Virus record (IMG/VR): IMGVR_UViG_3300033076_001589
Coordinates: 1-30,105 of that record
Length of the DNA stretch: 30,105 nucleotides
From: a virus
Taxonomy: Duplodnaviria > Caudoviricetes
Direction: 5' to 3' (one strand)
Below are positions 7,399 to 25,011 of this stretch, piece after piece; position 1 is the first letter of the stretch; every line of letters begins with the position of its first letter. The notes below the pieces were generated by a model, which did no database searches, was not told the origin of the DNA, and saw only the letters and a program-made list of their open reading frames with translations. A program made the position numbers and the translations under genes.

Positions 7399-8277
7399 TT
7401 AGCTCGCCTGGGTGAAGGTGACTCCCGCGGCGACGCGGCTGATCGCGTAGGCGAACCAGCTCGTGCCGTCGGTGTAGAACTCGACCTTGTCGCCGGCCAC
7501 CGACTGGTTGGCGACGAAGGACACGGTGTCGTCGGCGGTGCCGGAGTCGCCCGCATCACCGGCCACCGAGTTCTGGTTGCCCTTGATGATGTTGGCGGAG
7601 CTGGCGGTGACGACGGTGTAGGCCCCGCCGGTCGGCGCGGTCTGCACGATGAACGTGAACCGCATGCCGGCGACGGGCGCGGGCAGCGTGCTGACGAAGC
7701 CGGCGGCGGCGTTCAGGTAGAACGTCTTCCCGCTCTCGCTGGCCGCGATGACGTTGGTGGCGGTCACCGTCTCGGTGTTCGCCACCTGGATCGGCTCGCA
7801 GTCCTGCACTTCGACCACGTCGCCGTCGGCGGCCGCGGTGGTCAACAGCGTGCCGACCAGCACGGACCCGCTCAGGGCGATCTTGCCCGACGCGGCGGCA
7901 TAGACGTAAACGCCCGTGGTGGCCATCGCCTCGCTCGCGACCATTCGCTTGGTGCTGCCCTTGCCGAGCAGACCCAGCGTGACGGGCACGGCGGCGATGT
8001 CAGCGGTGGCGACCTCGTCGGCGATGACGCCGAGCGGCAGGTCGGTGGCGCCAGCCACGGCGAAGGTGTTGGCCGCCACGCCGCGCTTGTAGAGCAGGTG
8101 GCGGGTGGTGATGGCGGCGTCGGCGTAGCCGGTGAGGCCGTCTTCGTGGGTGCCTTCGGCGATGTTGGCGCCGTAGGTGATGCGGGCATCGCCACGGCGC
8201 CGAAGCGCGATGACGGCCAGGAGGCCGGCCGCCAGGATCAGCGGCAGGCAGAGGAGGAACAGGAACAGGGAGTTCAT
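7399..8277 (-). CDS. Capsid decoration/cement protein (DUF2190-like) with N-terminal hydrophobic anchor and C-terminal extra domain
   Basis: Start MNSLFLFLLCLPLILAAGLLAVIALRRR; AGATDLPLGV..VGTLLTTAAADGDVVEV is DUF2190-like; between protease and capsid genes. Confidence 0.7.
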   Translation of the reverse strand: MNSLFLFLLCLPLILAAGLLAVIALRRRGDARITYGANIAEGTHEDGLTGYADAAITTRHLLYKRGVAANTFAVAGATDLPLGVIADEVATADIAAVPVTLGLLGKGSTKRMVASEAMATTGVYVYAAASGKIALSGSVLVGTLLTTAAADGDVVEVQDCEPIQVANTETVTATNVIAASESGKTFYLNAAAGFVSTLPAPVAGMRFTFIVQTAPTGGAYTVVTASSANIIKGNQNSVAGDAGDSGTADDTVSFVANQSVAGDKVEFYTDGTSWFAYAISRVAAGVTFTQAS

Positions 8278-9640: not shown

Positions 9641-11259
9641 GCGGGGGTTCCGGGGGTGAGTCCGCGGAGAAGGCTGGTGGCGATGGCCTGGGCGAGCACG
9701 TCGGCGGAGTCGTCGGTGCGGTCGAGCTGCTGGCGGAGCGCGGAGGCGGGGTTGCGGAGCTCGCTGACGAGCCGGGCGGCGTTGGCGGCCCAGGCGACGG
9801 GTTCGGTGAGGGCGTTGAGCTCGGCGAGGCGGCGGGCGAGCGGCGACAGCTCGGCGGCCGTGGCGCGGCCGAGGCGGCGCCGGGCGTCGGCCACCAGGCG
9901 GAGGGTGTCCGCATCGGGCGCGGCGGCGGCGGCACGGGTGAGGGCGCGGCCCACCTCGTTGGCGGCCTCGTTCAGCGGCGGCCGGGGGAAGGCCCCGAAG
10001 GGATTCGCGGCGACGGGCGCGGGCGCGGGGCTCGTGAGGACCTGGTCGTCGGCATCGGCCGGGGTGCGGTCGTAGCGTTCGAGCGCGTCGTCCACGCTCA
10101 GGCGGGCGCCGCTGGCAATGAGGAAGCGGTCCACCTCCAGCTCGCGTTGGGCGTCGCGCTGGCGCGGCACGACGATCTTCACGTAGGCGAGGGGCTTCAC
10201 GCCTTCGCCGAAGCTCCAGGCGATGACGCGGCGATCGAGCTGTTCGTTGAGGGTCTCGCTCACGAGGGCGGCGTCGTCCTCTTCCAGGAGATCGCTCTCG
10301 CTGCCCTGCACGCTGGCGCCCTGCCCCTGCCCGGCCCCGGCGCTGAGGGTCGAGAGGTCCGCGCCGCGCCAGATCCGGGCGAGGGCGCGGTCCATGCGCT
10401 CGATCATCGGCTCGAACGGGAGCTGGCCGCTGTTGCCGACTTCCAGGAGGTTGATCTCGGAGGAACGGCTGCGGACCAGGGAGACTTCACGGGCGAGGCT
10501 CTCAACGGCGGTGCTGAGGGCGGTCCACTCGGGCGAGTCGGGCGCGGCGTCCGTGGCGGCATCGATGATGGGGAAGCCGAAGCGGTCGTTGTAGTTCACC
10601 CAGTCACCGAGCGCGAGGCGCTTGTAGGTGTAGGCGACGGCGCTGGGTTCGAGCAGCGCGGACTCGGAGGTGGTGATCAGCCAGGCGTCGCGGTCCATCG
10701 GCTGGCCGTCCCAGGCGGTGTCGCTGGGGAGGAAGCGCAGGGCGCCGGTGCGGCCTTCGAAGAACCAGAGGGGGACGTGCTGCAGCGTGGCGGTGAGCCC
10801 CATGGGCGAGGGCTGCCACAGGATCTCGTGCACGGCCCGGCGCAGGCCGAGGGCGCCGCGGAGCATCTGGCGCACGAGGAGCTTGAAGCCGCCGCGCACG
10901 TCGCGCTCCACCGCATCGGTGACCGCGAGGTTCGCGTAGAAGTGCTCGAGGGCGGCCTTGTGCGCCTCGGCCTCGGCGCGGCGCTCTTCGGGCACGTCGT
11001 CACCGATCAGGATGGCGTAGCCGTGGCGGGCCGGGCCGCCGGTGCGCTTGGCGATGACGGTGGCGAGCACGTCGTCGCGGCGGGCGATGGCATCGGCCAG
11101 CAGGGCGAACTCCCGGAAGGTGCCGGCGGCGAAGTGGTCGAGCCAGTCGCCGAGCTTGCTCGGTTCGAGCAGGCGGATGGGGTTCGTCCGGGTGCGCTTC
11201 TGGAAGGCGACGCGCTGCGGGGAGATGACCGAGGCGGTCGGTTCGGGGGTGGGATTCAC
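9637..11259 (-). CDS. Portal protein (Mu gp29 / DUF935-like)
   Basis: DWVNYNDRFGFP, ARIWRGADLST, LVSETLNEQL; between terminase and protease. Confidence 0.9.
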   Translation of the reverse strand: MNPTPEPTASVISPQRVAFQKRTRTNPIRLLEPSKLGDWLDHFAAGTFREFALLADAIARRDDVLATVIAKRTGGPARHGYAILIGDDVPEERRAEAEAHKAALEHFYANLAVTDAVERDVRGGFKLLVRQMLRGALGLRRAVHEILWQPSPMGLTATLQHVPLWFFEGRTGALRFLPSDTAWDGQPMDRDAWLITTSESALLEPSAVAYTYKRLALGDWVNYNDRFGFPIIDAATDAAPDSPEWTALSTAVESLAREVSLVRSRSSEINLLEVGNSGQLPFEPMIERMDRALARIWRGADLSTLSAGAGQGQGASVQGSESDLLEEDDAALVSETLNEQLDRRVIAWSFGEGVKPLAYVKIVVPRQRDAQRELEVDRFLIASGARLSVDDALERYDRTPADADDQVLTSPAPAPVAANPFGAFPRPPLNEAANEVGRALTRAAAAAPDADTLRLVADARRRLGRATAAELSPLARRLAELNALTEPVAWAANAARLVSELRNPASALRQQLDRTDDSADVLAQAIATSLLRGLTPGTPA

Positions 11260-15586: not shown

Positions 15587-16294
15587 TTAAGTGGCCGCGG
15601 GTTCGGGGGAGAAGTCCCAAGACCGCAGCAAACGGGCCATCTGCTCCTGTCGTTCTTCAGCGGTTCCGCCACCAAGAAGGGTGATGCGGTCGCATTGCCG
15701 TTGAAGCACGCAGGCAATGATGTCGTCCCGAATCGCCTTCACTGGGAGCATTCCTGAAATCCGCCGGATGTGCCGCCCCTCGACCGCGGAGAAGATGTCG
15801 TGACACCGGCGGAGATCCTCAACCTTCTCGAAGTGGTTTGCCCGACCGTCCCGGAGGCTTACCCGCTCCACCCCGATGTCAGGCGGAATCTCGATGATCG
15901 CCAACAGGTCGGGCACTGGTGCGAACTCCTCGTTGCGGCGGATGATGTCCCGCCAATCAAGCCCGCGGCATCCCTGGTAGGCCGCAGTGGAGTAGTAGTA
16001 GCGGTCCAGAATCACCACCTTGCCCGCTTCCAGGGACGGCCGGATCAGATCGCGAACATGTTCCCTCCGGTCCGCAATGAATTCCTCCAGCTCCTCTTCC
16101 GGGGACAGGCGGCCGCTCCAGGCGGATTCCCTCAGGCGACGACCATGCGGACCGTTTGTCGGTTCCTTCGACAGCACCACTTCCAAGCCAATTCGCCGGA
16201 GCTCCTCCGCGACAAGATTGGCCTGGGTCGTTTTGCCGGCGCCGTCGATGCCCTCAATGGCAACGAGAATGCCGGGATGTCCGCAGGAGTTCAC
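15587..16294 (-). CDS. tmk: Thymidylate (dTMP) kinase
   Basis: IEGIDGAGKTTQ P-loop, KEPT, ILDRYYYSTAAYQG, PDL motifs. Confidence 0.93.
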   Translation of the reverse strand: MNSCGHPGILVAIEGIDGAGKTTQANLVAEELRRIGLEVVLSKEPTNGPHGRRLRESAWSGRLSPEEELEEFIADRREHVRDLIRPSLEAGKVVILDRYYYSTAAYQGCRGLDWRDIIRRNEEFAPVPDLLAIIEIPPDIGVERVSLRDGRANHFEKVEDLRRCHDIFSAVEGRHIRRISGMLPVKAIRDDIIACVLQRQCDRITLLGGGTAEERQEQMARLLRSWDFSPEPAAT

Positions 16295-16355: not shown

Positions 16356-16829
16356 TTAGTGGGGTCCCCGCGGATCGTAGCCGTGGGAGCGCGCCAGGCC
16401 GTTCGTCAGCAGCAGGCGGCCCAGATCGCGGCCGTCGGGCAGCGTCACGTAGCCGGTCACCCGGCCGCCGCTGGGCGTGTGTGCGCCGCGGGTGATGATG
16501 GTGAAAGGGGCCGCCGCGAGGTGCGTGCGCGTGAACTCGGTGGCCACCTGCCCCAGGGCGAGCACGCCGGCGGTGTTGGTCTGCCAATGCGCCGCCTGCT
16601 CGGCCACGCGGGCCTTGAGGCTCCGGGTGGTCTCCGGGCAGTCCACGGCGTAGAGGCGCAACACCAGGCGGTTGGTGCCGTGCGCCACACGGAACGAGTC
16701 GCCGTCGTTGTGCGCGTCCTCGATCATCGTGCAGTTCGTCCACGTCTGCCACGTCTGCCACGGCGGCGGCGGGGGCGCGGCCAGGGCGCTGAGGACCCAC
16801 AGCGAAGACGCGAAGGCGCGAAGGAGCAT
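16356..16829 (-). CDS. Secreted thermonuclease (SNase-like), apparently C-terminally truncated
   Basis: Signal peptide; DGDSF, LRLYAVDCPET, GRVTGYV, DLGRLLLTNGLAR; no final A...GIW-type helix. Confidence 0.8.
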   Translation of the reverse strand: MLLRAFASSLWVLSALAAPPPPPWQTWQTWTNCTMIEDAHNDGDSFRVAHGTNRLVLRLYAVDCPETTRSLKARVAEQAAHWQTNTAGVLALGQVATEFTRTHLAAAPFTIITRGAHTPSGGRVTGYVTLPDGRDLGRLLLTNGLARSHGYDPRGPH

Positions 16830-17194
16830 CAGGCGAAGGGTTGGCCGGAACCGTCGCGGGTCACCAGCACGATGTCGCCGATCAGCCACACGCCCAGCAC
16901 GGCGAGCGCGATCAGGTTGCCCAAGGCCAAGGCGGCCACGAAGCACAGCAATTGCAGCAGGCCTGACAGCGTCCGGCCCGCGTAGAAGTTGTGCAGGCCG
17001 GACCCGCCGACGAACAGCGCGAGCAGCAGGTAGGCAAGGCGCGACCGGGGCGGACGGGGCGGCGCATCCGGCGCCGGACCGAGCGGGCTTGCCTTTGCCC
17101 TGGGCCTTGTTCCGAAGACGAAGCCGGGCGGGCGTCCCGATTGCACGGCCAGCTCGGCCGCGGCACAGCGGGGTTCGGAGGTGGATTCGTTCAT
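16829..17194 (-). CDS. TM2-domain (NINE) membrane protein
   Basis: SRLAYLLLALFVGGSGLHNFYAGRTLSGLLQL...VWLIGDIVL. Confidence 0.88.
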   Translation of the reverse strand: MNESTSEPRCAAAELAVQSGRPPGFVFGTRPRAKASPLGPAPDAPPRPPRSRLAYLLLALFVGGSGLHNFYAGRTLSGLLQLLCFVAALALGNLIALAVLGVWLIGDIVLVTRDGSGQPFA

Positions 17195-17559
17195 GGCGCG
17201 ATCGGGGACGCAATTCTGCGTTGCTGCTGGGGCGGCGCAGCACGCATAAGGGTTTCACGCTGCCTTGCCGAGGCCAACTGGTAAACGACGGCCACTGTGT
17301 TCGTGCTTACAAACCGCAGCTCTTCTACGGCCCGAGAGCTGGATTCAATGTGTGGCCAAATGGCATCAACGCAGGTCTTGGACATCTGCGCGATCTGGTT
17401 GGTGACCGTCAGTGTGAGCTGCTCGTGGTTGCTGATCACCTGTTCGCGCAGAACGGCAAGTTCGCGTTCGAGCCTGGCAATCTTCTCGTCGCGTGGATCC
17501 GGTGAGCAGCCGGACAAGCAAACGATTCCGGCACAGACAAGGGGCGTGACAATCTTCAT
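17191..17559 (-). CDS. Putative lipoprotein with coiled coil, 122 aa
   Basis: MKIVTPLVCAGIVCLSGC lipobox; KIARLERELAVLREQ. Confidence 0.7.
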   Translation of the reverse strand: MKIVTPLVCAGIVCLSGCSPDPRDEKIARLERELAVLREQVISNHEQLTLTVTNQIAQMSKTCVDAIWPHIESSSRAVEELRFVSTNTVAVVYQLASARQRETLMRAAPPQQQRRIASPIAP

Positions 17560-17628
17560 GACGTGAGTTGTTCGCAGGTTATTCCGTGGGACGGCGGTTG
17601 ACTGAGGTGGCCCGGACGATGCCGGGCG

Positions 17629-17874
17629 ATGAAGCCCAAGAGGACAAACGATCCCCGGCAACTCAAGTTGGATCTCCGGGTCAGATTGGAACCGGTGCTG
17701 GAGCAGACGGTCATTGGACGATCGAGTGCGGAGGTGGAGTCGCTGGCCCGTGCTCACTACCGCTGGGCGAAGCAACTGTGGGTGTTGCACGAGGTGATGC
17801 AGCGGGACGGGGTGCCATGTGTGCCGGCACCAAGGCCGCGTGTGCCTCCATGCTCGTGTCCCGCGCGGAACTAG
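17629..17874 (+). CDS. Hypothetical protein antisense to the repressor C-terminus
   Basis: MKPKRTNDPRQLKLDL...; protein-like composition, whereas the overlapping repressor tail is low-complexity. Confidence 0.4.
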   Translation: MKPKRTNDPRQLKLDLRVRLEPVLEQTVIGRSSAEVESLARAHYRWAKQLWVLHEVMQRDGVPCVPAPRPRVPPCSCPARN

Positions 17875-18331
17875 GCGGCGGCGGGGGTGGCTGGGAGTAG
17901 CGGGCCCGCGGCGGATCGGCGGCGGGTGCCTCGGCCAAGGCATCCAACATGGAGTGAACCGCAGTGAGGACGCGGCGAAGGCGCCACTCAGGCAGGTCCG
18001 CCATCCGATTGGACAAGTCCCGTTGCCAACTTGGGATCTCATCACGGACCACGGCCGGCGCGTCCCGGTGATCGCCTGGCGACTCGCCTGCTGCATCCCG
18101 AGCCGCGCTGGCGTCGTCCCCGAACAGGTAGCCGATCGAGACGTGCAGAACTTCGCTCAATCTGCGCAAGTGCGCAGGCCTTGGAAGATTCGCATTCCCA
18201 CTCTCCCAGATCTGGACAGAGCGCAGGGAAACCTCCGCAGCACGGGCCAATTCAGATTGAGTGAGCCCCTGTGCGTTGCGGCACCCAATCAGGCGACGGG
18301 CGAACTTCTGCGCCTTTTCTTCACTTTGCAT
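17711..18331 (-). CDS. Prophage repressor, XRE/HTH_3 family
   Basis: RNAQGLTQSELARAAEVSLRSVQIWESG...LSEVLHVSIGYLFG; divergent from the Ner-like gene. Confidence 0.88.
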   Translation of the reverse strand: MQSEEKAQKFARRLIGCRNAQGLTQSELARAAEVSLRSVQIWESGNANLPRPAHLRRLSEVLHVSIGYLFGDDASAARDAAGESPGDHRDAPAVVRDEIPSWQRDLSNRMADLPEWRLRRVLTAVHSMLDALAEAPAADPPRARYSQPPPPPPSSARDTSMEAHAALVPAHMAPRPAASPRATPTVASPSGSEHGPATPPPHSIVQ

Positions 18332-18379
18332 TTGACGTGATGCGTAGTTCTGCGTAATCCTGCATACAGATTACGCGAC
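18332..18379. promoter_or_regulatory. Divergent lysis/lysogeny switch with operators
   Basis: 48-bp gap; TTGACG-N17-TAATCC on +; TGCGTA/TGCGTA/TGCATA at 10-bp period; inverted repeat GCGTAATC-N9-GATTACGC. Confidence 0.7.
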
Positions 18380-18571
18380 ATGACGCCTCAAGCAAGAGCC
18401 AACTACCAGCGCCTCCGGGCTCGGATGATCGAGTCCGGATTCACGGTGCGGTCTTGGGCGGAGTCTCGGGGGTTCGTTCCGAGCACGGTCTATGACTCCC
18501 TTAAGGGTCTTCGGAACGGGGTTGAGGCTCGGAAGATTCAGCGTGCTGCGGAAAGGGCCTTCAATGCCTGA
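18380..18571 (+). CDS. Ner/Cro-like DNA-binding protein
   Basis: GFTVRSWAESRGFVPSTVYDSLKG, similar in pattern to the BcepMu gp16-type family; first early gene. Confidence 0.8.
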   Translation: MTPQARANYQRLRARMIESGFTVRSWAESRGFVPSTVYDSLKGLRNGVEARKIQRAAERAFNA

Positions 18572-18809
18572 CCATCGGACAATCCTCTTCGACCACGTCA
18601 TGCGAACCGCTCAGCAAGAGCCCGTTGCCGTCCGCTCGAATCTCTACCGCGCATTGGCCGAATACGCCGGCAACCCTGATCAGACCGATCAGCTCCTCAA
18701 GCTCGCCGCGGAACTGGAGGCGGTGGACCAGCGGTGCTTCGCCTTTGCCCGCCAGCTCCGCCAAGCCCCCCTCTTCACGGAAACCACCAACGGAGGATTA
18801 GGACGATGA
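18564..18809 (+). CDS. Hypothetical early protein, 81 aa
   Basis: MPDHRTILFDHV...; overlaps the Ner-like stop. Confidence 0.7.
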   Translation: MPDHRTILFDHVMRTAQQEPVAVRSNLYRALAEYAGNPDQTDQLLKLAAELEAVDQRCFAFARQLRQAPLFTETTNGGLGR

Positions 18810-19144
18810 GCACACTTAGAACGGGCGCTCAGGAAGTGGCCGCATGGGTTCGCCTGGGGCTGTTTCGGCTGGAACTGGCACGCCGGGCGGAAGCGGAAGC
18901 GCAACGGCCCAATACGTCTCCATCTCAGCCAGGCGGCTGTCCGCCGCTCCCGGCGGCCAGTGACAGCCCAGCCGGGCCGACAGCCCCGCCAGCATCTCCG
19001 TCTGCACCTGTTGCCGGGCCAGCAGGGAGATCAGTGCCGACTCCAGTTGATGGATGCGTTGCTCCAGCCGTTTCGATTCCTCCGGGGTCATTGGTGGAGG
19101 CTGCCGCGGTCGGCGCAGGCGTCAACGGCGGAGGTGCCCGATGA
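18806..19144 (+). CDS. Coupled Pro/Ala/Ser-rich sense ORF overlapping an antisense gene
   Basis: GGAGG SD, ATGA coupling at both ends, ends in GGAR. Confidence 0.5.
   Translation: MSTLRTGAQEVAAWVRLGLFRLELARRAEAEAQRPNTSPSQPGGCPPLPAASDSPAGPTAPPASPSAPVAGPAGRSVPTPVDGCVAPAVSIPPGSLVEAAAVGAGVNGGGAR
18816..19091 (-). CDS. Antisense hypothetical protein, paralog 1
   Basis: MTPEE...LAGLSARLGCHWPPG...RLAEMETYW; clear similarity to 19166-19447. Confidence 0.72.
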   Translation of the reverse strand: MTPEESKRLEQRIHQLESALISLLARQQVQTEMLAGLSARLGCHWPPGAADSRLAEMETYWAVALPLPPGVPVPAETAPGEPMRPLPERPF

Positions 19145-19575
19145 GCACCACCAACCGCAGTCCGTTCACGGTTCCCGGCGCGGCGGAATGGGAAGCAAGG
19201 GTTCGCCGATTCCGACGGTCGGTGGAACTCCATCGTCTCGCCGAAGGGCTTCCTGAAGATTGGAGTAGTAATCCTCCAGCTCGGCCTGCCGGTGGGTCCA
19301 CGAGCCCGGTGGCCAGTCACAGCCCAGCCGGTCACTCAGGGCCGCCAGCACTTCCAGGGTCAGCCGCTGTTGGGCTTGCAGGGTCACCAACATGGCTTCC
19401 AGCGCGAGGTGCCGATGAGCGGCGTGCTTCCGATCTTCCGGGGTCATGCGGCGAGGTTGTCGTGGCCCTGATGGTGGTCAATGCGCAAGGGGTGGACCAG
19501 CGGTGCTTCGCCTTCGCCCGCCAGCTCCGCCAAGCCCCCCTCTTCACTGAACCGACCCAGGGAGGTGCCCGGTGA
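19141..19575 (+). CDS. Coupled low-complexity sense ORF overlapping an antisense gene
   Basis: GGAGGT SD, ATGA/GTGA coupling; C-terminus duplicates that of 18564-18809. Confidence 0.5.
   Translation: MSTTNRSPFTVPGAAEWEARVRRFRRSVELHRLAEGLPEDWSSNPPARPAGGSTSPVASHSPAGHSGPPALPGSAAVGLAGSPTWLPARGADERRASDLPGSCGEVVVALMVVNAQGVDQRCFAFARQLRQAPLFTEPTQGGAR
19166..19447 (-). CDS. Antisense hypothetical protein, paralog 2
   Basis: MTPED...LAALSDRLGCDWPPG...RQAELEDYY. Confidence 0.72.
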   Translation of the reverse strand: MTPEDRKHAAHRHLALEAMLVTLQAQQRLTLEVLAALSDRLGCDWPPGSWTHRQAELEDYYSNLQEALRRDDGVPPTVGIGEPLLPIPPRREP

Positions 19576-20012
19576 AGCCTCAATGGTCCAATGAGCCCGG
19601 CAACCGCAGCGTGATCGAGCCAGAGATGACCATCGCCGTGCCGATCAGCGCCTGGGAGATGCTGGCCATCGTCACCGGCGGGTTGACGGCCATCAGGGTC
19701 ATCAGGAGGAGCATGCCGATGACGGTCTGGGCGACGTCGAACACCGCCTGTCGCATCCGCGAGTTGCGCCACCACTTGGCCGAGGTGGCCGGATCGTTGG
19801 GCTGGTTCGCGGCGTTCAGCGCGTGCGTGGTCTTCCGCCATTCGTTGGCGGCGGCCATCAGCTTGGACGAGGCGAGCACCAGCGCGCTGATGCCGGCGAT
19901 CACGGCGGCGGCGGCAGTCATGGGGTTGTCGAGCGGCATTGGGATCGGGGTGTTCGTGCGCAGGCTCCGGATGGCCACCCAGGAATGCAACTGCGGAGAC
20001 GCCACCCGCTGA
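19572..20012 (+). CDS. Coupled sense ORF overlapping an antisense membrane-protein ORF
   Basis: GGAGGT SD and GTGA coupling. Confidence 0.45.
   Translation: MKPQWSNEPGNRSVIEPEMTIAVPISAWEMLAIVTGGLTAIRVIRRSMPMTVWATSNTACRIRELRHHLAEVAGSLGWFAAFSACVVFRHSLAAAISLDEASTSALMPAITAAAAVMGLSSGIGIGVFVRRLRMATQECNCGDATR
19580..19939 (-). CDS. Antisense putative membrane protein (about 3 hydrophobic segments; start uncertain)
   Basis: AAAAVIAGISALVLA, TVIGMLLLMTLMAV, ALIGTAMVISG. Confidence 0.5.
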   Translation of the reverse strand: MPLDNPMTAAAAVIAGISALVLASSKLMAAANEWRKTTHALNAANQPNDPATSAKWWRNSRMRQAVFDVAQTVIGMLLLMTLMAVNPPVTMASISQALIGTAMVISGSITLRLPGSLDH

Positions 20013-20033
20013 ATTTCTCCAAGGACGACGGAC

Positions 20034-20198
20034 ATGAAGACACCACACCATCACCTCCTGACGTTTGGCCGGCGCGTGGGCCTCACTCTGGTCGGGCTGA
20101 GCACCGCGCTGATGCTCGCCCTCTTCCTCGGCTTCGCCGGGGGCGCCTTCGTGCGCGGCTGCAACGCCGCCCTCACGGTGGGAAAGGCCGCCCGATGA
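20034..20198 (+). CDS. Small single-TM protein, 54 aa
   Basis: MKTPHHHLLTFGRRVGLTLVGLSTALMLALFLGFAGGAFV...; ATGA coupling to the next gene. Confidence 0.6.
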   Translation: MKTPHHHLLTFGRRVGLTLVGLSTALMLALFLGFAGGAFVRGCNAALTVGKAAR

Positions 20199-20482
20199 AC
20201 CGCCGCACCACCCTGGCACCCCGCGTGCCCGAGACCGTGGCCTTCCGCGTGGAAGTCTGGCCCGCGATGCGTCTCGCCCGCATGGCCGTGGAAGAGATCC
20301 GGAACAACGCCCTGCTCGCGAGCCGGCTGCGCCCCTACGCCGAGCATGCCGCGGCCCATCGGCTCGCCCTGGTCGAGCTGCACACCGCGGCGCGGGAGAT
20401 GCGCCCGCTGATCCGGGCCGTGCTCGCCGCCGGCTGGAACCCCGCGCAATTCCGCCGCCGTCCAACCGGAGGTGCCAGGTGA
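20195..20482 (+). CDS. Hypothetical early protein, 95 aa
   Basis: MNRRTTLAP...GGAR; coupled at both ends. Confidence 0.65.
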   Translation: MNRRTTLAPRVPETVAFRVEVWPAMRLARMAVEEIRNNALLASRLRPYAEHAAAHRLALVELHTAAREMRPLIRAVLAAGWNPAQFRRRPTGGAR

Positions 20483-21735
20483 AGCCGGGAGCCAAGAGCG
20501 CGGCGCCGAACGAACACGGCGTGCTCGCACCCACCGAGACCGTGGTCATCCCCGGCCTGCCCCGCGGCTGCCAGGCCGTGATCCGGCTCTGTGAGCACGA
20601 GGGCGGGTGGCACGTCGGCTACGACTTCAGCTCGCCCAAGGCCGGAACCTCAGGCCCCTGCAAGGTCGGCGTCCGCCGCTGGGCGACCCGTGACACGGCG
20701 CTCGACGTGGGCTTCCGCTGGGCCCGCGGCTTCTTCGATCAGGAGAAGGTCACCGAGGCCGTCCGCATCATCGACCTGCGGATCGGCGACGAACTGCCGG
20801 ACGCGGCGACACCCTCACCCCTCTCGGAGGCCACGCCTCCATCACAGCAACACGTTGGACCCATGGACACCAAGACAGCACTGACCAAACGACCCCTCAC
20901 GTTCCGTCCGCTCAAGGAGCTGACGATCCACCCCGCCATCGCCGACGACCCGCGCATGGCCCCCAAGGACCCGCGCTACGTCGCCATGAAGACGGCGTGG
21001 ACCGAGCAGGGCGGCTGCCCGCCCATCTACGTGACCGCCACCGGCGCGATCGTGGACGGCCGCCACCGCTACTGGTGGCTCGTGGACGCCGGCGAGGACA
21101 CCGCCCCGTGCATCGAGGTCGGCGAAGACGAGGTCTTCACCATCATCCTCGGCGCCATTGCCGGGCGGAACCACCAGACGCAGGGCCAGCGCGCCTACTT
21201 CGCCGCGGCGAAGATCGGCCCGGCGATGCTGGCGGCGAAGGAACGCCGCGAGGAGCAGCTCCGCCGCGGGGGCAAGATCACCCTGCCGCCGCTGCCCACG
21301 GCCGACGAATTCGCGGAGCAGTTGCACCTGGGGCGCAACCTGCTGTTCCAGGCGGCCAAGCTCCACACGCTGTTCACCGACGGGAAGGTGGGGGCGAAGC
21401 TCCGCCAGGAGTGGGAGCCGAAGATCCTGGATCCGCACGAGCCCATCGGCCTGGGCGCGGCGATTGCCGGCATCGCGGGTTCGGGCGCCACCAAGGGCAA
21501 GTTCAAGCCCGACCGCAACTCCGCGCTGAACAACTGGGAGGCCGGCTGGAAGAACCTGGTGAAGCCGGCGCTGCACTTCGTGAAGTGGGATGAGGAGCAG
21601 CGCGACTACGCGGCCGAGACGCTGCGCCGAACGCTCACGAAGCTGCCGGGCGACGTGCTTGAGCTCGTGATCGCGAGCGCCCGCGCCGCGAAGAAGGCCG
21701 TGGACGCGGCGAGTGCGGAACCGACCGCCGAGTGA
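20479..21735 (+). CDS. ParB/Srx-like domain protein
   Basis: LTIHPAI..PRM, PPIYVTATGAIVDGRHR, RNHQTQGQRA, then HTH-like ADEFAEQLHLGRNLL. Confidence 0.8.
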   Translation: MKPGAKSAAPNEHGVLAPTETVVIPGLPRGCQAVIRLCEHEGGWHVGYDFSSPKAGTSGPCKVGVRRWATRDTALDVGFRWARGFFDQEKVTEAVRIIDLRIGDELPDAATPSPLSEATPPSQQHVGPMDTKTALTKRPLTFRPLKELTIHPAIADDPRMAPKDPRYVAMKTAWTEQGGCPPIYVTATGAIVDGRHRYWWLVDAGEDTAPCIEVGEDEVFTIILGAIAGRNHQTQGQRAYFAAAKIGPAMLAAKERREEQLRRGGKITLPPLPTADEFAEQLHLGRNLLFQAAKLHTLFTDGKVGAKLRQEWEPKILDPHEPIGLGAAIAGIAGSGATKGKFKPDRNSALNNWEAGWKNLVKPALHFVKWDEEQRDYAAETLRRTLTKLPGDVLELVIASARAAKKAVDAASAEPTAE

Positions 21736-21765
21736 TCCCCGACCCTCTCCACTGAGCCTCACCCC

Positions 21766-23865
21766 ATGAACGACTTGACCTCCATCGTTGATCCCGACCT
21801 GTCCGCCTGCGCAGCCATTGAACCGCGAGGCGATGCCGGGGAGATGGAGGTCACCCCTCTCCCCACCGCCGCCACGGATCGCCTCCCACAGGACGTGCAT
21901 GCGTGCGGTCTTCCGCCCCTCCCGGCGCCGGCCTGCGATCCGGCGCCGGACTCCGCCCCCGTCTCCGCCGAGCGCCTCACCGAGGCCGGCCGCCGGCAGC
22001 GGCTCGTCGAGCTCTACCGCTCCCTGCAGGCCAGCGGCCGCACCCGCAACCAGGCCGTCGCCGAGATCTGCCGCCATGTGGATGGCGACTGCTCCCGCGC
22101 CACGCTCGACCGGTGGGACGCCCGCTTCACCGCCGGCGGCTTCCCCGCGCTGCTGCCCGAGACGCACCGCTGCGGCCGCAAGTCGGCGATGGCCAAGCTC
22201 CGCGAATCCCTGGGCGACGTGACCGTGGGCGAACTCATGCGGCAGGCCCGCGGCCTCGCCCACGACACCCAGAGCGAGGTGATGGCGCTCCGGATGCTCG
22301 CCCACTCGCCCATCGCCCCCGAGCCGCTGGCCCAGCTCGTGGACTACGCCGCGCACGGCGGCCGCCGCAGCAGCAAGCACGCGCTGCCCCCGAGCGTGCG
22401 CGACGAGCTGCGCCGCAACCCCGCGTTGGCCCTCCGCCACCAGGGCCCGCGCGCCAGCGCCCTCCGCGGCTTCTGGATCCCGCGCAAGGTGGACATCCTG
22501 CCCGGCGACGTGTGGACCTCCGACGACACCACGCCCATCTGGGGCTGGTGGGTGCCGTGGCCGCACGCGCTCGGCAACCCGGCGTTCCCCAAGGCGAGCT
22601 GCGAACACCGCTTCGGCGTGAAGCTCCTGCAGGGCCAGCTCCTGCCGCTGATGGACGTGGCCTCGAACGCCATCTTCAGCGTCGCGCTGATCGCCCGCGA
22701 GACCAGCGCCTACCGGGCGAGCGACATCTGGGCCATGTTCGGCCGGGCCTTCCAGCTCTACGGGCTGCCGCGCCTCGGCTTCCAGCTCGAACGCGGCTCC
22801 TGGGAGGCCAACCTGATCCGCGGCCAGAAGGTCGAGACCGAGGTCGAAGGCATCCCGCTCGAACGCCGCGTGGGCGGCCTGCGGATGCTGCCGACCAACG
22901 TGACCGACTGGCACCGGCAGACGCACGGCGCCGACTTCGCCTTCCCCGGCACGCTGCAGACGTGGACCAGCTACCTGCCCAAGTCGAAGCCGGTCGAAGC
23001 GGCCTTCGACCGGATGCAGACGCTGGAGGGGACGCTGTGGGGGAACCTCGGCCGCGACCAGATGCGCCGGCCGAACGAACGGGCGAAGCGGCAGTTCGAG
23101 GCGTGCCGCCGCGGCAGCGCCGATCCCCGCGAGCACTTCCTCAGCGGCACCGAGCTGATGACGCGCCTCAAGGGCCTGATCGAGTTCCTGAACAGCGAGC
23201 CGATGGAAGGCGAAGTCTTCAAGGGCGTGCCCCGGCTGCTGTGGGAGCAGGGCCTGCGGGAGCATCCGCTCCGGCACCTGCCCGACGCGGAGAGCTACCT
23301 GTTCCGCCGCTCCTGGCACGTCACCAAGGTGACCCGCGGCTGGGTGACCGCGCGCTTCACGGATGCGCAGGGCGAGCGCGCCCTCGCGCGCTACTGCAAC
23401 CCTGAGCACTTCCCCGCACTCGAAGGCCGCGAGGTGGCCGCCTACTTCGACAGCGAGGCGCCCGACGAGCCGGCCCAGATCCACGACGCGGCGACCGGGG
23501 AGTTCCTCTGCACGGCGGAGGGCTTCGGCGCCCGCGGCCTGTTCCTCGATCACAGCCGCGACGGCCACGAGCTGAAGCGCCGCTACAACCAGGCGCTGAC
23601 CACGCTCTACGGCGACATCGCGGCGACGGCCCCGAGCCGGCAGTTGCCCGCGGAGATCAAGGCCCGGCGGGAAGCGGCCGGCGGCACGCCCGAGGACGCC
23701 GCGGCAGCCCCGCGGCCGGAGGACGGCCGCACCGTGGCCCCGGCCCGGCCGGCGGCCATCCGGAGCGCGAACGCCTTCGCGCCCGTGACCCAGGACGACT
23801 TCGCCTCACGGATCGCCAAGCAGCGGCGGCGCCAGGCGGCGCTGGCCGCGACGGACGCGGACTGA
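21766..23865 (+). CDS. Mu-like DDE transposase A
   Basis: N-terminal HTH (SRATLDRW), GDVWTSDDTT, LMDVAS, YGLP, SKPVEAAF; followed by an AAA ATPase. Confidence 0.9.
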   Translation: MNDLTSIVDPDLSACAAIEPRGDAGEMEVTPLPTAATDRLPQDVHACGLPPLPAPACDPAPDSAPVSAERLTEAGRRQRLVELYRSLQASGRTRNQAVAEICRHVDGDCSRATLDRWDARFTAGGFPALLPETHRCGRKSAMAKLRESLGDVTVGELMRQARGLAHDTQSEVMALRMLAHSPIAPEPLAQLVDYAAHGGRRSSKHALPPSVRDELRRNPALALRHQGPRASALRGFWIPRKVDILPGDVWTSDDTTPIWGWWVPWPHALGNPAFPKASCEHRFGVKLLQGQLLPLMDVASNAIFSVALIARETSAYRASDIWAMFGRAFQLYGLPRLGFQLERGSWEANLIRGQKVETEVEGIPLERRVGGLRMLPTNVTDWHRQTHGADFAFPGTLQTWTSYLPKSKPVEAAFDRMQTLEGTLWGNLGRDQMRRPNERAKRQFEACRRGSADPREHFLSGTELMTRLKGLIEFLNSEPMEGEVFKGVPRLLWEQGLREHPLRHLPDAESYLFRRSWHVTKVTRGWVTARFTDAQGERALARYCNPEHFPALEGREVAAYFDSEAPDEPAQIHDAATGEFLCTAEGFGARGLFLDHSRDGHELKRRYNQALTTLYGDIAATAPSRQLPAEIKARREAAGGTPEDAAAAPRPEDGRTVAPARPAAIRSANAFAPVTQDDFASRIAKQRRRQAALAATDAD

Positions 23866-23895: not shown

Positions 23896-25011
23896 ATGGA
23901 CGACACCAACACCCCCGCCGGCACCATCCGGCCCGACTACGACGGTCCCATGATCAAGTGGGACGACGTGACCATCGCCCACGAGGCCGAGCACATGCCC
24001 GGCGAGCTCCGCGAGCTCTACGTGTGGCTGAAGGTCTTCACCCGCGAGCACTGCCACAAGGACGTGGACATGCTGGTCTCGCGCTTCCGCGAGCTGGGCA
24101 TCCACCGCGACAAGACCACCTGGTCGAAGATCCTCCGCGGACGCTGGAAGCGCGACGCGCGCGGCGACGAGACGGTCAACCCCGTGGTGGCGGCCGACAA
24201 GCTCGTCGAGGAGATCGGCGCGCTGCGCACCAACCAGCGCATCGAGTCCATGCGCGGACTCGTGCCCTTCGTGGAGACCACCACCTGGGAGGCCATCGCC
24301 GGTCTCATTGACCAGCGGCGCACCGCGGCGCGGGTGAACAAGTGGGGCATCATCGTGGGCGCGACCGGCAGCCAGAAGACCGCGTGCATGCGGGAGTATC
24401 GCCAGCGGCACAACCACGGGACGACCGTGCTGGTCGAAGCGCCGGAGCGCGGCAGCTTCGGCGAGTTCCTCCGCGTGCTCTCGCGCTGCTACGGGCTGAG
24501 CTCCAAGGCCAACACCACGGACATGCGGGCGCACATCATGCACCGGCTCTCCCTGGGCACGGCCACCGAGCGGGCGCAGCGCTGTGTGATCGTGGACAAC
24601 GCCCAGGAGCTGTGGCTGGGCGAGCGCGACAGCGATCAGCCGGCCTTCACCTTCCTGCGCCGGCTGCAGGACACCACCGGCTGCACCATCATCCTGTGCA
24701 TCACGCCGCTGTTCGAGCGGCGGCTGGTGGCGGGCATGATCGAGGGCTGGTTCGAGCAGATCGAAGGCCGGAGCGGCGGTCGCAACCGCTGGCTGCGCCT
24801 GCCCGAGTGGGCACCCGACGAGGACGTGCTGGCCATCGCCAAGGCGTTCGGCCTGCGCGACGCGAAGGCGCACCTGAAGGAGCTGGTGAAGATCAGCCGC
24901 GAGCCGGGGCGCATCCGCCGGCTGTTCGAGGACCTGCAGGAGGGCAAGCTGCTCGCCGGCAGGGATCCCTTCACCTGGGGCCACATCCTGGAAGCAAGGG
25001 GGGAGGCATGA
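23896..25011 (+). CDS. Transposition AAA ATPase (MuB-like)
   Basis: IIVGATGSQKT (Walker A-like), CVIVDNAQ (Walker B-like), LRRLQD; SD GGAGG. Confidence 0.88.
   Translation: MDDTNTPAGTIRPDYDGPMIKWDDVTIAHEAEHMPGELRELYVWLKVFTREHCHKDVDMLVSRFRELGIHRDKTTWSKILRGRWKRDARGDETVNPVVAADKLVEEIGALRTNQRIESMRGLVPFVETTTWEAIAGLIDQRRTAARVNKWGIIVGATGSQKTACMREYRQRHNHGTTVLVEAPERGSFGEFLRVLSRCYGLSSKANTTDMRAHIMHRLSLGTATERAQRCVIVDNAQELWLGERDSDQPAFTFLRRLQDTTGCTIILCITPLFERRLVAGMIEGWFEQIEGRSGGRNRWLRLPEWAPDEDVLAIAKAFGLRDAKAHLKELVKISREPGRIRRLFEDLQEGKLLAGRDPFTWGHILEARGEA

Follow-up and report, generated by a model that had tools for sequence, protein, structure and literature searches.

Why does a transposable phage carry three genes backward inside its early operon, each lying opposite an open reading frame (ORF) on the operon strand? 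The question is raised by positions 18806 to 20012 of the window, by which we mean the whole stretch of viral DNA analysed (30,105 nucleotides, IMG/VR record IMGVR_UViG_3300033076_001589). The three backward genes, here called A1, A2 and A3, are best explained as exchangeable cargo occupying a slot within the early operon. The coupled sense ORFs that cover them (S1, S2 and S3) are, judging from the sequences of this phage and its relatives, probably ribosome relays, which would be likely to prevent Rho polarity across the slot and to help silence the cargo on induction.

Organization of the early region

The window belongs to a Mu-like phage. Based on Pfam and PHROG matches, one arm holds a repressor, ner-like, ParB-like, transposase, MuB and Gam genes, and the other holds terminase, portal and head genes. 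Relatives of its MuB in named genomes come mostly from Verrucomicrobiota, and for that reason the host is probably a member of this group. The features needed below are as follows.

17711..18331 (-), repressor, in the same direction as A1-A3 (Pfam HTH_3, E 1e-9; PHROG repressor families)
18332..18361 (+), putative early promoter predicted by a relaxed motif scan, TTGACG-18-AATCCT
18380..18571 (+), ner-like first early gene (phrog_925, E 1.6e-6), with homologues in relatives
18564..18809 (+), gene X, a real conserved early gene whose stop overlaps the S1 start (homologues in L025, L006, L009, L039 and L031)
18722..18796 (+), first copy of a direct repeat of 75 nt, which lies at the gene X 3' end and bounds the slot on the left
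18806..19144 (+), S1, bridge ORF of 112 aa, ATGA-coupled at both ends, spanning A1 and its promoter motif
18816..19091 (-), A1, antisense gene of the MTPE family, 91 aa, nested in S1
19098..19125 (-), TTGACG-16-CAGCCT, predicted as the promoter of A1, with the ATG 6 nt downstream
19141..19575 (+), S2, bridge ORF of 144 aa whose last ~25 codons copy the end of gene X as an in-frame fusion
19166..19447 (-), A2, paralogue of A1, 93 aa, nested in S2
19454..19481 (-), TTGACC-16-CAACCT, predicted as the promoter of A2, again with the ATG 6 nt downstream
19491..19565 (+), second copy of the repeat, with 92% identity to the first
19572..20012 (+), S3, sense ORF of 146 aa with a GTGA-coupled start and, at its end, a 21-nt gap to the next gene without overlap
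19580..19939 (-), A3, unrelated to A1 and A2, 119 aa from 19939, start uncertain, with two hydrophobic stretches
20016..20482 (+), right boundary of the slot, which is conserved, with two further small early genes (20034-20198 and 20195-20482)
20479..21735 (+), ParB-like early gene (phrog_1033), conserved in relatives
21766..23865 and 23896..25011 (+), transposase A and MuB, downstream of the bridges (phrog_310, phrog_296, Pfam MuB_C)

A strict promoter scan gave no match for the early promoter. Around these features, a conserved 81-aa gene (17629-17874, +) is convergent with the repressor ORF and overlaps its 3' end; its profile matched 12 other loci, one of them a duplicate, and no known family. 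Behind the repressor, positions 16356-17559 (-) hold a putative lipoprotein gene, a TM2-domain gene and an SNase-like nuclease gene, a block that is likely cargo and is followed by a thymidylate kinase gene (15587-16294). At its N-terminus the ParB-like ORF is extended by 128 aa, an extension that, among the loci searched, it shares only with L005; this is possibly a fused small gene, or the gene may have two starts.

Geometry and coding of the nested pairs

Each of the three sense ORFs is open, begins in a 4-nt overlap (ATGA or GTGA) with the preceding stop and has a GGAGG-type Shine-Dalgarno (SD) sequence ahead of it, so the SD and start coupling that the initial annotation had reported at 18806, 19141 and 19572 are present at all three positions. 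Its description of three antisense ORFs lying entirely within sense ORFs holds for A1 and A2, and for A3 only if the start is at 19939 or 20005; the longest ATG-initiated form of A3 (20035) begins beyond the S3 stop. A1 and A2, recognized there as paralogues, indeed share 45% identity (41/92, E 2e-21). The RLGCxWPPG signature proposed for their family does not survive, as two further homologues keep only its G and W.

Codon scores favor the antisense frame in all three pairs (A1 -0.10 versus S1 -0.80, A2 +0.05 versus S2 -0.50, A3 +0.47 versus S3 +0.22), and over codons 1 to 60 the A1 and A2 regions have 30/60 residues alike in the antisense frame and 23/60 in the sense frame. Both results support the earlier proposal that the antisense frames are the selected ones. 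That the sense counterparts are of low complexity is not true for S3, which owes its positive score to the coincidence of S3 and A3 wobble positions. In the N-terminal block of S1 and S2, 11/26 residues are common in the sense frame and 9/26 in the antisense frame. Codon position 1 lies opposite position 1 in S1/A1 and S2/A2, and position 3 opposite position 3 in S3/A3.

Could such open frames arise by chance? The trivially open antisense frame in this GC-rich phage is the codon-aligned one, which is free of stops in 89% of cases. For the frames used by S1, S2 and S3, measured opposite the phage's own genes, the probabilities of staying open over lengths such as these are 0.06, 0.022 and 0.122 (product 1.6e-4). 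When the A proteins were held fixed and their codons shuffled, the open-frame probabilities became 0.55 (S1), 0.30 (S2) and 0.61 (S3). The window by itself is therefore only suggestive, and the case rests on the relatives.

Cassettes in relatives

Alignment of MuB retrieved 20, 15 and 60 loci, to which five more stretches were added. Forty-one loci, window included, had enough upstream DNA to be analysed, and 38 remained after removal of two duplicates and one locus without MuB. Fourteen cassettes were found in 11 of these 38 loci, not every one of which covers the whole early region: three in the window, two in L005 (L005a and L005b) and one each in L008, L011, L012, L022, L029, L035, L036, L075 and L077. 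The MuB proteins of the cassette loci are 32-56% identical and their GC content is 53-69%. Judged by sequence, the cargo comprises at least two unrelated families. The MTPE family includes A1, A2, L005a, L012, L029, P0124 and P0125, with weak pairwise support beyond A1/A2 and P0124; the second family consists of L005b, L035, L036 and L008, and the remaining cargo genes are singletons.

In 11/14 cassettes the start of the sense ORF lies in a 4-nt overlap (the others have an 8-nt overlap and gaps of 7 and 10 nt), and in 8/14 so does its end, the remainder ending no more than 24 nt from a start. Codon position 1 lies opposite position 1 in 11/14, position 3 opposite position 3 in 2/14, and a single cassette (L022) is codon-aligned, in the trivially open frame, a point against the relay; the position-1 relation is conserved though flank lengths range from 7 to 331 nt. 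Similarity among the sense ORFs is limited to those of MTPE-family cassettes, whose DNA is itself shared. In L029, L005b and L011 they score as non-coding over the antisense gene; in L005a, L036, L077 and L022 their N-termini score as coding. Several A genes show a rise in GC2 and a fall in GC3 in their last third, and several end in Pro-rich tails that resemble shadows of these N-termini. Together, the coding-like sense N-termini and the shadow-like tails suggest that some bridges are probably real early genes reading through. A real N-terminal part, such as the sense ORFs of L077, L036 and L005a have, and gene 10 of phage Fc02 as well (PMC9936078), had not been considered in the initial annotation.

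Two cassettes are distant from the repressor, that of L008 following parB and that of L075 following gam. In L075 the bridge ends 14 nt before the antisense start and is followed by a 7-codon ORF, which counts against a relay. A second-family gene of L013 that lies outside the early operon has a stop in its position-1 frame and no coupled start, and L001 gave a 12-residue match only. Low-scoring coupled sense ORFs in L034, L013, L075 (1886), L032, L027 and L028 lie opposite no convincing antisense gene. Variability in the ParB and second-family alignments was too high for them to serve in locus scans. When viral contigs were searched with DNA patterns in two scans, 9 and 7 loci came up; L005 was the one contig recovered each time, and the rest were chance-like. 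A rho gene product above the family cut-off was found in 4/5 host genomes of relatives.

Some other features of these early regions were noted along the way. Early ORFs of L034 (5532-6170 and 6640, +) contain repeated 'TGGNRGNR...SLLPLLPPVKN' units, and L075 has a unit like them near 7419-7799. In L058 the stretch just ahead of MuB (7708-8252, +), where a transposase would be expected, consists of low-complexity repeats with three frames open. Two different phages have a transposase divided between two ORFs, at much the same position (L011, 7618-9976, and L028, 7853-9954, both +), a possible programmed frameshift.

Loss of stop codons in the coupled frame

Frequent breaks in the sense frames of relatives, which the initial annotation had named as evidence against its reading, were not seen. 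The 13 cassettes that are not codon-aligned contain one stop (in L075) in the sense frame, against 18.8 expected from synonymous shuffling, and the other out-of-register frame of the same cassettes has 40 stops against 39.9 expected. In 19 minus-strand control genes the position-1 frame has 81 stops against 105.9 expected and is open in 0/19, so the shuffle null is about a quarter too high; with this correction the expectation for the 13 cassettes becomes 14.4 stops versus the 1 seen (P 9e-6). These figures are to be read with the fact that several cassettes were recognized partly by their open sense frame and that cassettes of one family are not independent.

Since an open frame was what had first drawn attention to some cassettes, a further scan disregarded the sense frame. 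It took minus-strand ORFs of at least 60 aa with xAxxxT 6 nt before the start and the best codon score, and returned 32 rows: 9 in the operon, 3 of them the window genes, 18 outside it, and 5 set aside as the reverse side of real plus-strand genes (L016 8210, L026 9006, L032 11101, L024 13513 and L039 6430; L024 is the one inspected base by base). The position-1 frame is open in 7/9 in-operon and 0/18 outside genes (P 4e-5), where in or out of the operon was called by position and the repressor is not anchored in every locus. The nine in-operon genes have 1 stop against 7.4 expected (P 0.005; corrected P 0.023). Single-cassette shuffle probabilities are often 0.2-0.6. Taken over the cassettes, the feature is real and recurrent.

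Predicted promoter motifs of the antisense genes

Upstream of A1 and A2 there is a common motif, TTGAC[GC]-16-CA[GA]CCT, located exactly 6 nt before the ATG, and neither gene has an SD sequence. A -10 to start spacing of 6 nt is that expected for a leaderless message, and the A1 and A2 messages are predicted to be leaderless. The strict promoter scan was empty here because the -10 begins with C. Both motifs sit within the 3' part of the covering sense ORF. A3, read from 19939, has neither the leaderless motif nor a clear promoter motif, which counts against the relay. Among the seven cassettes that were recognized without use of the motif, xAxxxT is present 6 nt before the start in 7/7, and a TTG -35 as well in 5/7, compared with 43 of 34,984 starts in the background.

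The same arrangement is present at some repressor genes. In L027 (4311), L029 (1796) and L077 (1876), all on the minus strand, the start codon, a GTG, lies 6 nt after a -35/-10-like motif, and these repressor messages, like that of lambda cI, which is leaderless, are predicted to lack a leader. The window has three further -35/-10-like sites on the minus strand (19603, 18700 and 18606), directed toward the repressor and with no ATG 6 nt behind them, which are candidate establishment-type promoters.

A slot swapped between close relatives

The 75-nt direct repeat explains why the end of S2 copies the end of gene X in frame. Contigs of close relatives show larger exchanges around it. One (run X2) keeps the end of gene X, then has 253 nt in place of 181 nt inside S1, a change by a multiple of three; it keeps 18979-19144, with the listed changes upstream of the A1 ATG confined to the 6-nt spacer, and after 19144 it has 241 nt in place of 871. 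In another (run X4), 1,252 nt are replaced by 376 nt. Both contigs rejoin the window at 20016. A weaker case is a 155-nt contig (run X7), with 29 nt on one side, in which 18721 is joined to 19491 and the A1-A2 block is absent. The region after ner and gene X is thus a slot that is swapped between close relatives. Neither this swapping nor the repeat and the promoter motif had been reported in the initial annotation.

Searches for the identity of the cargo

The A and S proteins gave no match of note in Pfam, PHROG or PADLOC; with PADLOC 2.0, whose library holds systems described by 2023, 0/17 proteins matched. A tblastn search of A1 and A3 against 50,697 phage records and an Rfam search over 17000-22000 gave no match. 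A word search with A2 found only A2 itself, an HMM search of 1.84 billion proteins returned three matches, A2 among them, and a 7-sequence profile found nothing beyond its own members. The predicted structure of A1 consists of a helix (3-41), a second helix (49-64) and a loose Pro-rich tail (model pLDDT 78). Structure prediction, suggested earlier as a check, did not bring a fold match that gives a function: the A1 model has no Foldseek match at E<=0.001 in viral or PDB libraries, and its best VIA hit (Z 6.2) reflects generic helices. A model of the second cargo family (pLDDT 74) has no Foldseek match in the viral library, and Atlas gave no usable lead of 0.9 or more. By analogy, superinfection exclusion or defence would be our guess for the function of the cargo.

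A probable ribosome relay and its alternatives

How might the two strands work together? In the lysogen the early promoter would be repressed and the antisense promoters would fire toward the repressor gene, so that the cargo is transcribed. Upon induction, ribosomes would be handed from gene X via S1, S2 and S3 across about 1.2 kb; they would protect the polymerase from Rho, begin translation again at the SD/ATGA junction that comes next, and load the downstream genes. The early polymerase, made strong enough in this way, would override the convergent promoters, with the cargo switched off and the transposase expressed as a result. Most of each sense peptide is then likely a by-product. In an artificial E. 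coli construct, extending an ORF through a convergent gene lengthened the transcript and repressed the convergent gene about 6-fold at the protein and about 38-fold at the RNA level (10.1101/2020.09.23.310730). The sense RNA over S1-S3 has a maximal C/G ratio of 1.2-1.75, compared to 2.3 in the transposase, and is not C-rich; strong Rho loading is therefore not evident, and this counts against the relay.

An alternative, which we think unlikely, is true dual coding, in which the sense ORFs make functional proteins composed of an N-terminal domain and a read-through tail and the frame is kept for the product. The N-termini of L005a, L036, L077 and L022, with their positive sense codon scores, and the change in GC2 and GC3 that several A genes show over their final third would fit this, and in the transposable phage Fc02 the overlapping early protein Gp10 is made and excludes phages, according to the parts of that report considered here (PMC9936078). 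The 11/26 residues common to the S1 and S2 N-terminal blocks also speak for it, but the same block has 9/26 in common in the antisense frame. The sense ORFs moreover lack any match of note in Pfam, PHROG or PADLOC and are unrelated between cargo families, those of L029, L005b and L011 look non-coding over the antisense gene, and a functional N-terminus would leave unexplained why the tail stays open up to the next start. Even less probable is that the open frames are only shadows of GC-rich genes, with ATGA junctions left over from the operon. The frequent openness of the codon-aligned frame in this phage (89%) and the ordinary single-cassette probabilities (0.2-0.6) are what such shadows would give, but only 1/14 cassettes uses the codon-aligned frame, which has stops in 9/13 of the others, and the frame that they do use is open in none of the 19 controls. 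In addition, the loss of stops is confined to the coupled frame, and one relative swaps 181 for 253 nt inside S1 in a multiple of three. We consider this explanation largely refuted.

It is also conceivable, at long odds though somewhat less remote than shadow ORFs, that the antisense units serve mainly as promoters or antisense RNAs running into the repressor gene, and that the open frame overrides them on induction instead of preventing polarity. All A genes face the repressor, no minus-strand terminator-like site was found in 17500-21800, the additional promoter-like sites at 19603, 18700 and 18606 point the same way, and the repressor genes of three relatives carry the same -35/-10/N6 pattern. 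Lambda PRE is a comparable promoter that runs into the repressor gene. In the Fc02 lysogen, as far as the cited portions tell, the repressor is transcribed from a distal promoter, pC1 (PMC9936078). Against such a role, no cassette was seen in 27/38 loci (some of them incomplete), which therefore manage without one, the cassettes of L008 and L075 are located far from the repressor, and the A proteins form conserved families. The relay thus remains the reading that we prefer. Whether it amounts to a general design rule is more tentative, and we would put this slightly below an even chance: in hosts where Rho acts on untranslated RNA, antisense cargo expressed in lysogeny may be accommodated inside a lytic operon only when a coupled, peptide-indifferent frame runs across it. 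The bridges would then be portable cassettes, each made up of the gene, the leaderless promoter and an SD/ATGA junction and swapped by recombination, and also a nursery of overlapping genes, of which Fc02 gene 10 may be an example.

Comparison with known systems

The sieB/sas region of phage P22 sits against the early leftward transcript. There a prophage exclusion gene is under the control of a cis antisense RNA (PMC7067206, PMC12197685). Unlike the cassettes, sas is a non-coding antisense RNA that acts on the choice of translation start, and the parts of these two papers used here describe no bridging ORF. Like the shadow ORFs of GC-rich genomes, the cassettes have a long open frame opposite a real gene and a low-complexity translation. 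Shadow ORFs, however, favor the codon-aligned frame and have uncoupled ends, whereas the cassettes use a rarely open frame and are coupled, and the stop deficit beyond codon use that shadow ORFs do not have is present here (1 versus 18.8, or 14.4 corrected).

In noncontiguous operons, antisense genes are likewise located between co-directional genes of one operon; among these is S. aureus phage 80alpha, in which a nested antisense gene with its own promoter is part of a lysogeny/lysis switch, as outlined in the sections of the two papers drawn on (PMC11034616, PMC11087260). With regard to an own promoter, A1 and A2 have the conserved -35/-10-like motif and A3, from 19939, has none. In the same sections the operon strand is left untranslated across the insert, which is put down to the runaway transcription of Gram-positive bacteria (PMC11034616, PMC11087260), whereas here the operon strand has a coupled open frame across it. 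How transcription persists across an untranslated antisense insert is presented there as an open problem (PMC11034616). That literature answers it for Gram-positive bacteria only, and a translated bridge would be a concrete answer for hosts in which Rho couples transcription to translation. In the open-access literature searched we found no proposal of translated bridges. If the relay is true, these are ORFs selected for being translated and not for their product. Annotation misses one strand of such sense/antisense pairs, and the cassettes indicate at least two protein families, so far uncharacterised, that are candidates for expression in the lysogen.

The closest parallel is the olg1/olg2-gene 10 module of the B3-like transposable phage Fc02. 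In the account given there, olg1 is antisense, expressed in the lysogen and overlapped by the early gene 10, and both have exclusion activity (PMC9936078). In both phages an antisense gene just after ner points toward the repressor and is overlapped by an early-strand ORF, and in the Fc02 sequence (MH719189.1) we likewise found position 1 opposite position 1 and a low-complexity gene 10 tail over olg1. There is no significant homology to Olg1 or Gp10 (hhalign probability 0.1%; best E values of 0.017-0.047, obtained in databases of just 2-24 sequences), so the arrangement here works like that module and is not a member of it by descent. It also differs from Fc02 in its three tandem cassettes, its unrelated, swappable cargo and its sense frames without a conserved product, and Fc02 olg1 has an SD-like leader, unlike A1 and A2, which are predicted to be leaderless. 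A relay role for gene 10 is not proposed in the parts of the report cited here (PMC9936078). The Fc02 sequence does contain, on the minus strand at 9832-9960, an unannotated ORF of 42 codons that begins 2 nt after the gene 10 stop, bridges the 127-nt gap over the olg1 upstream region and ends in an ATGA on the next gene.
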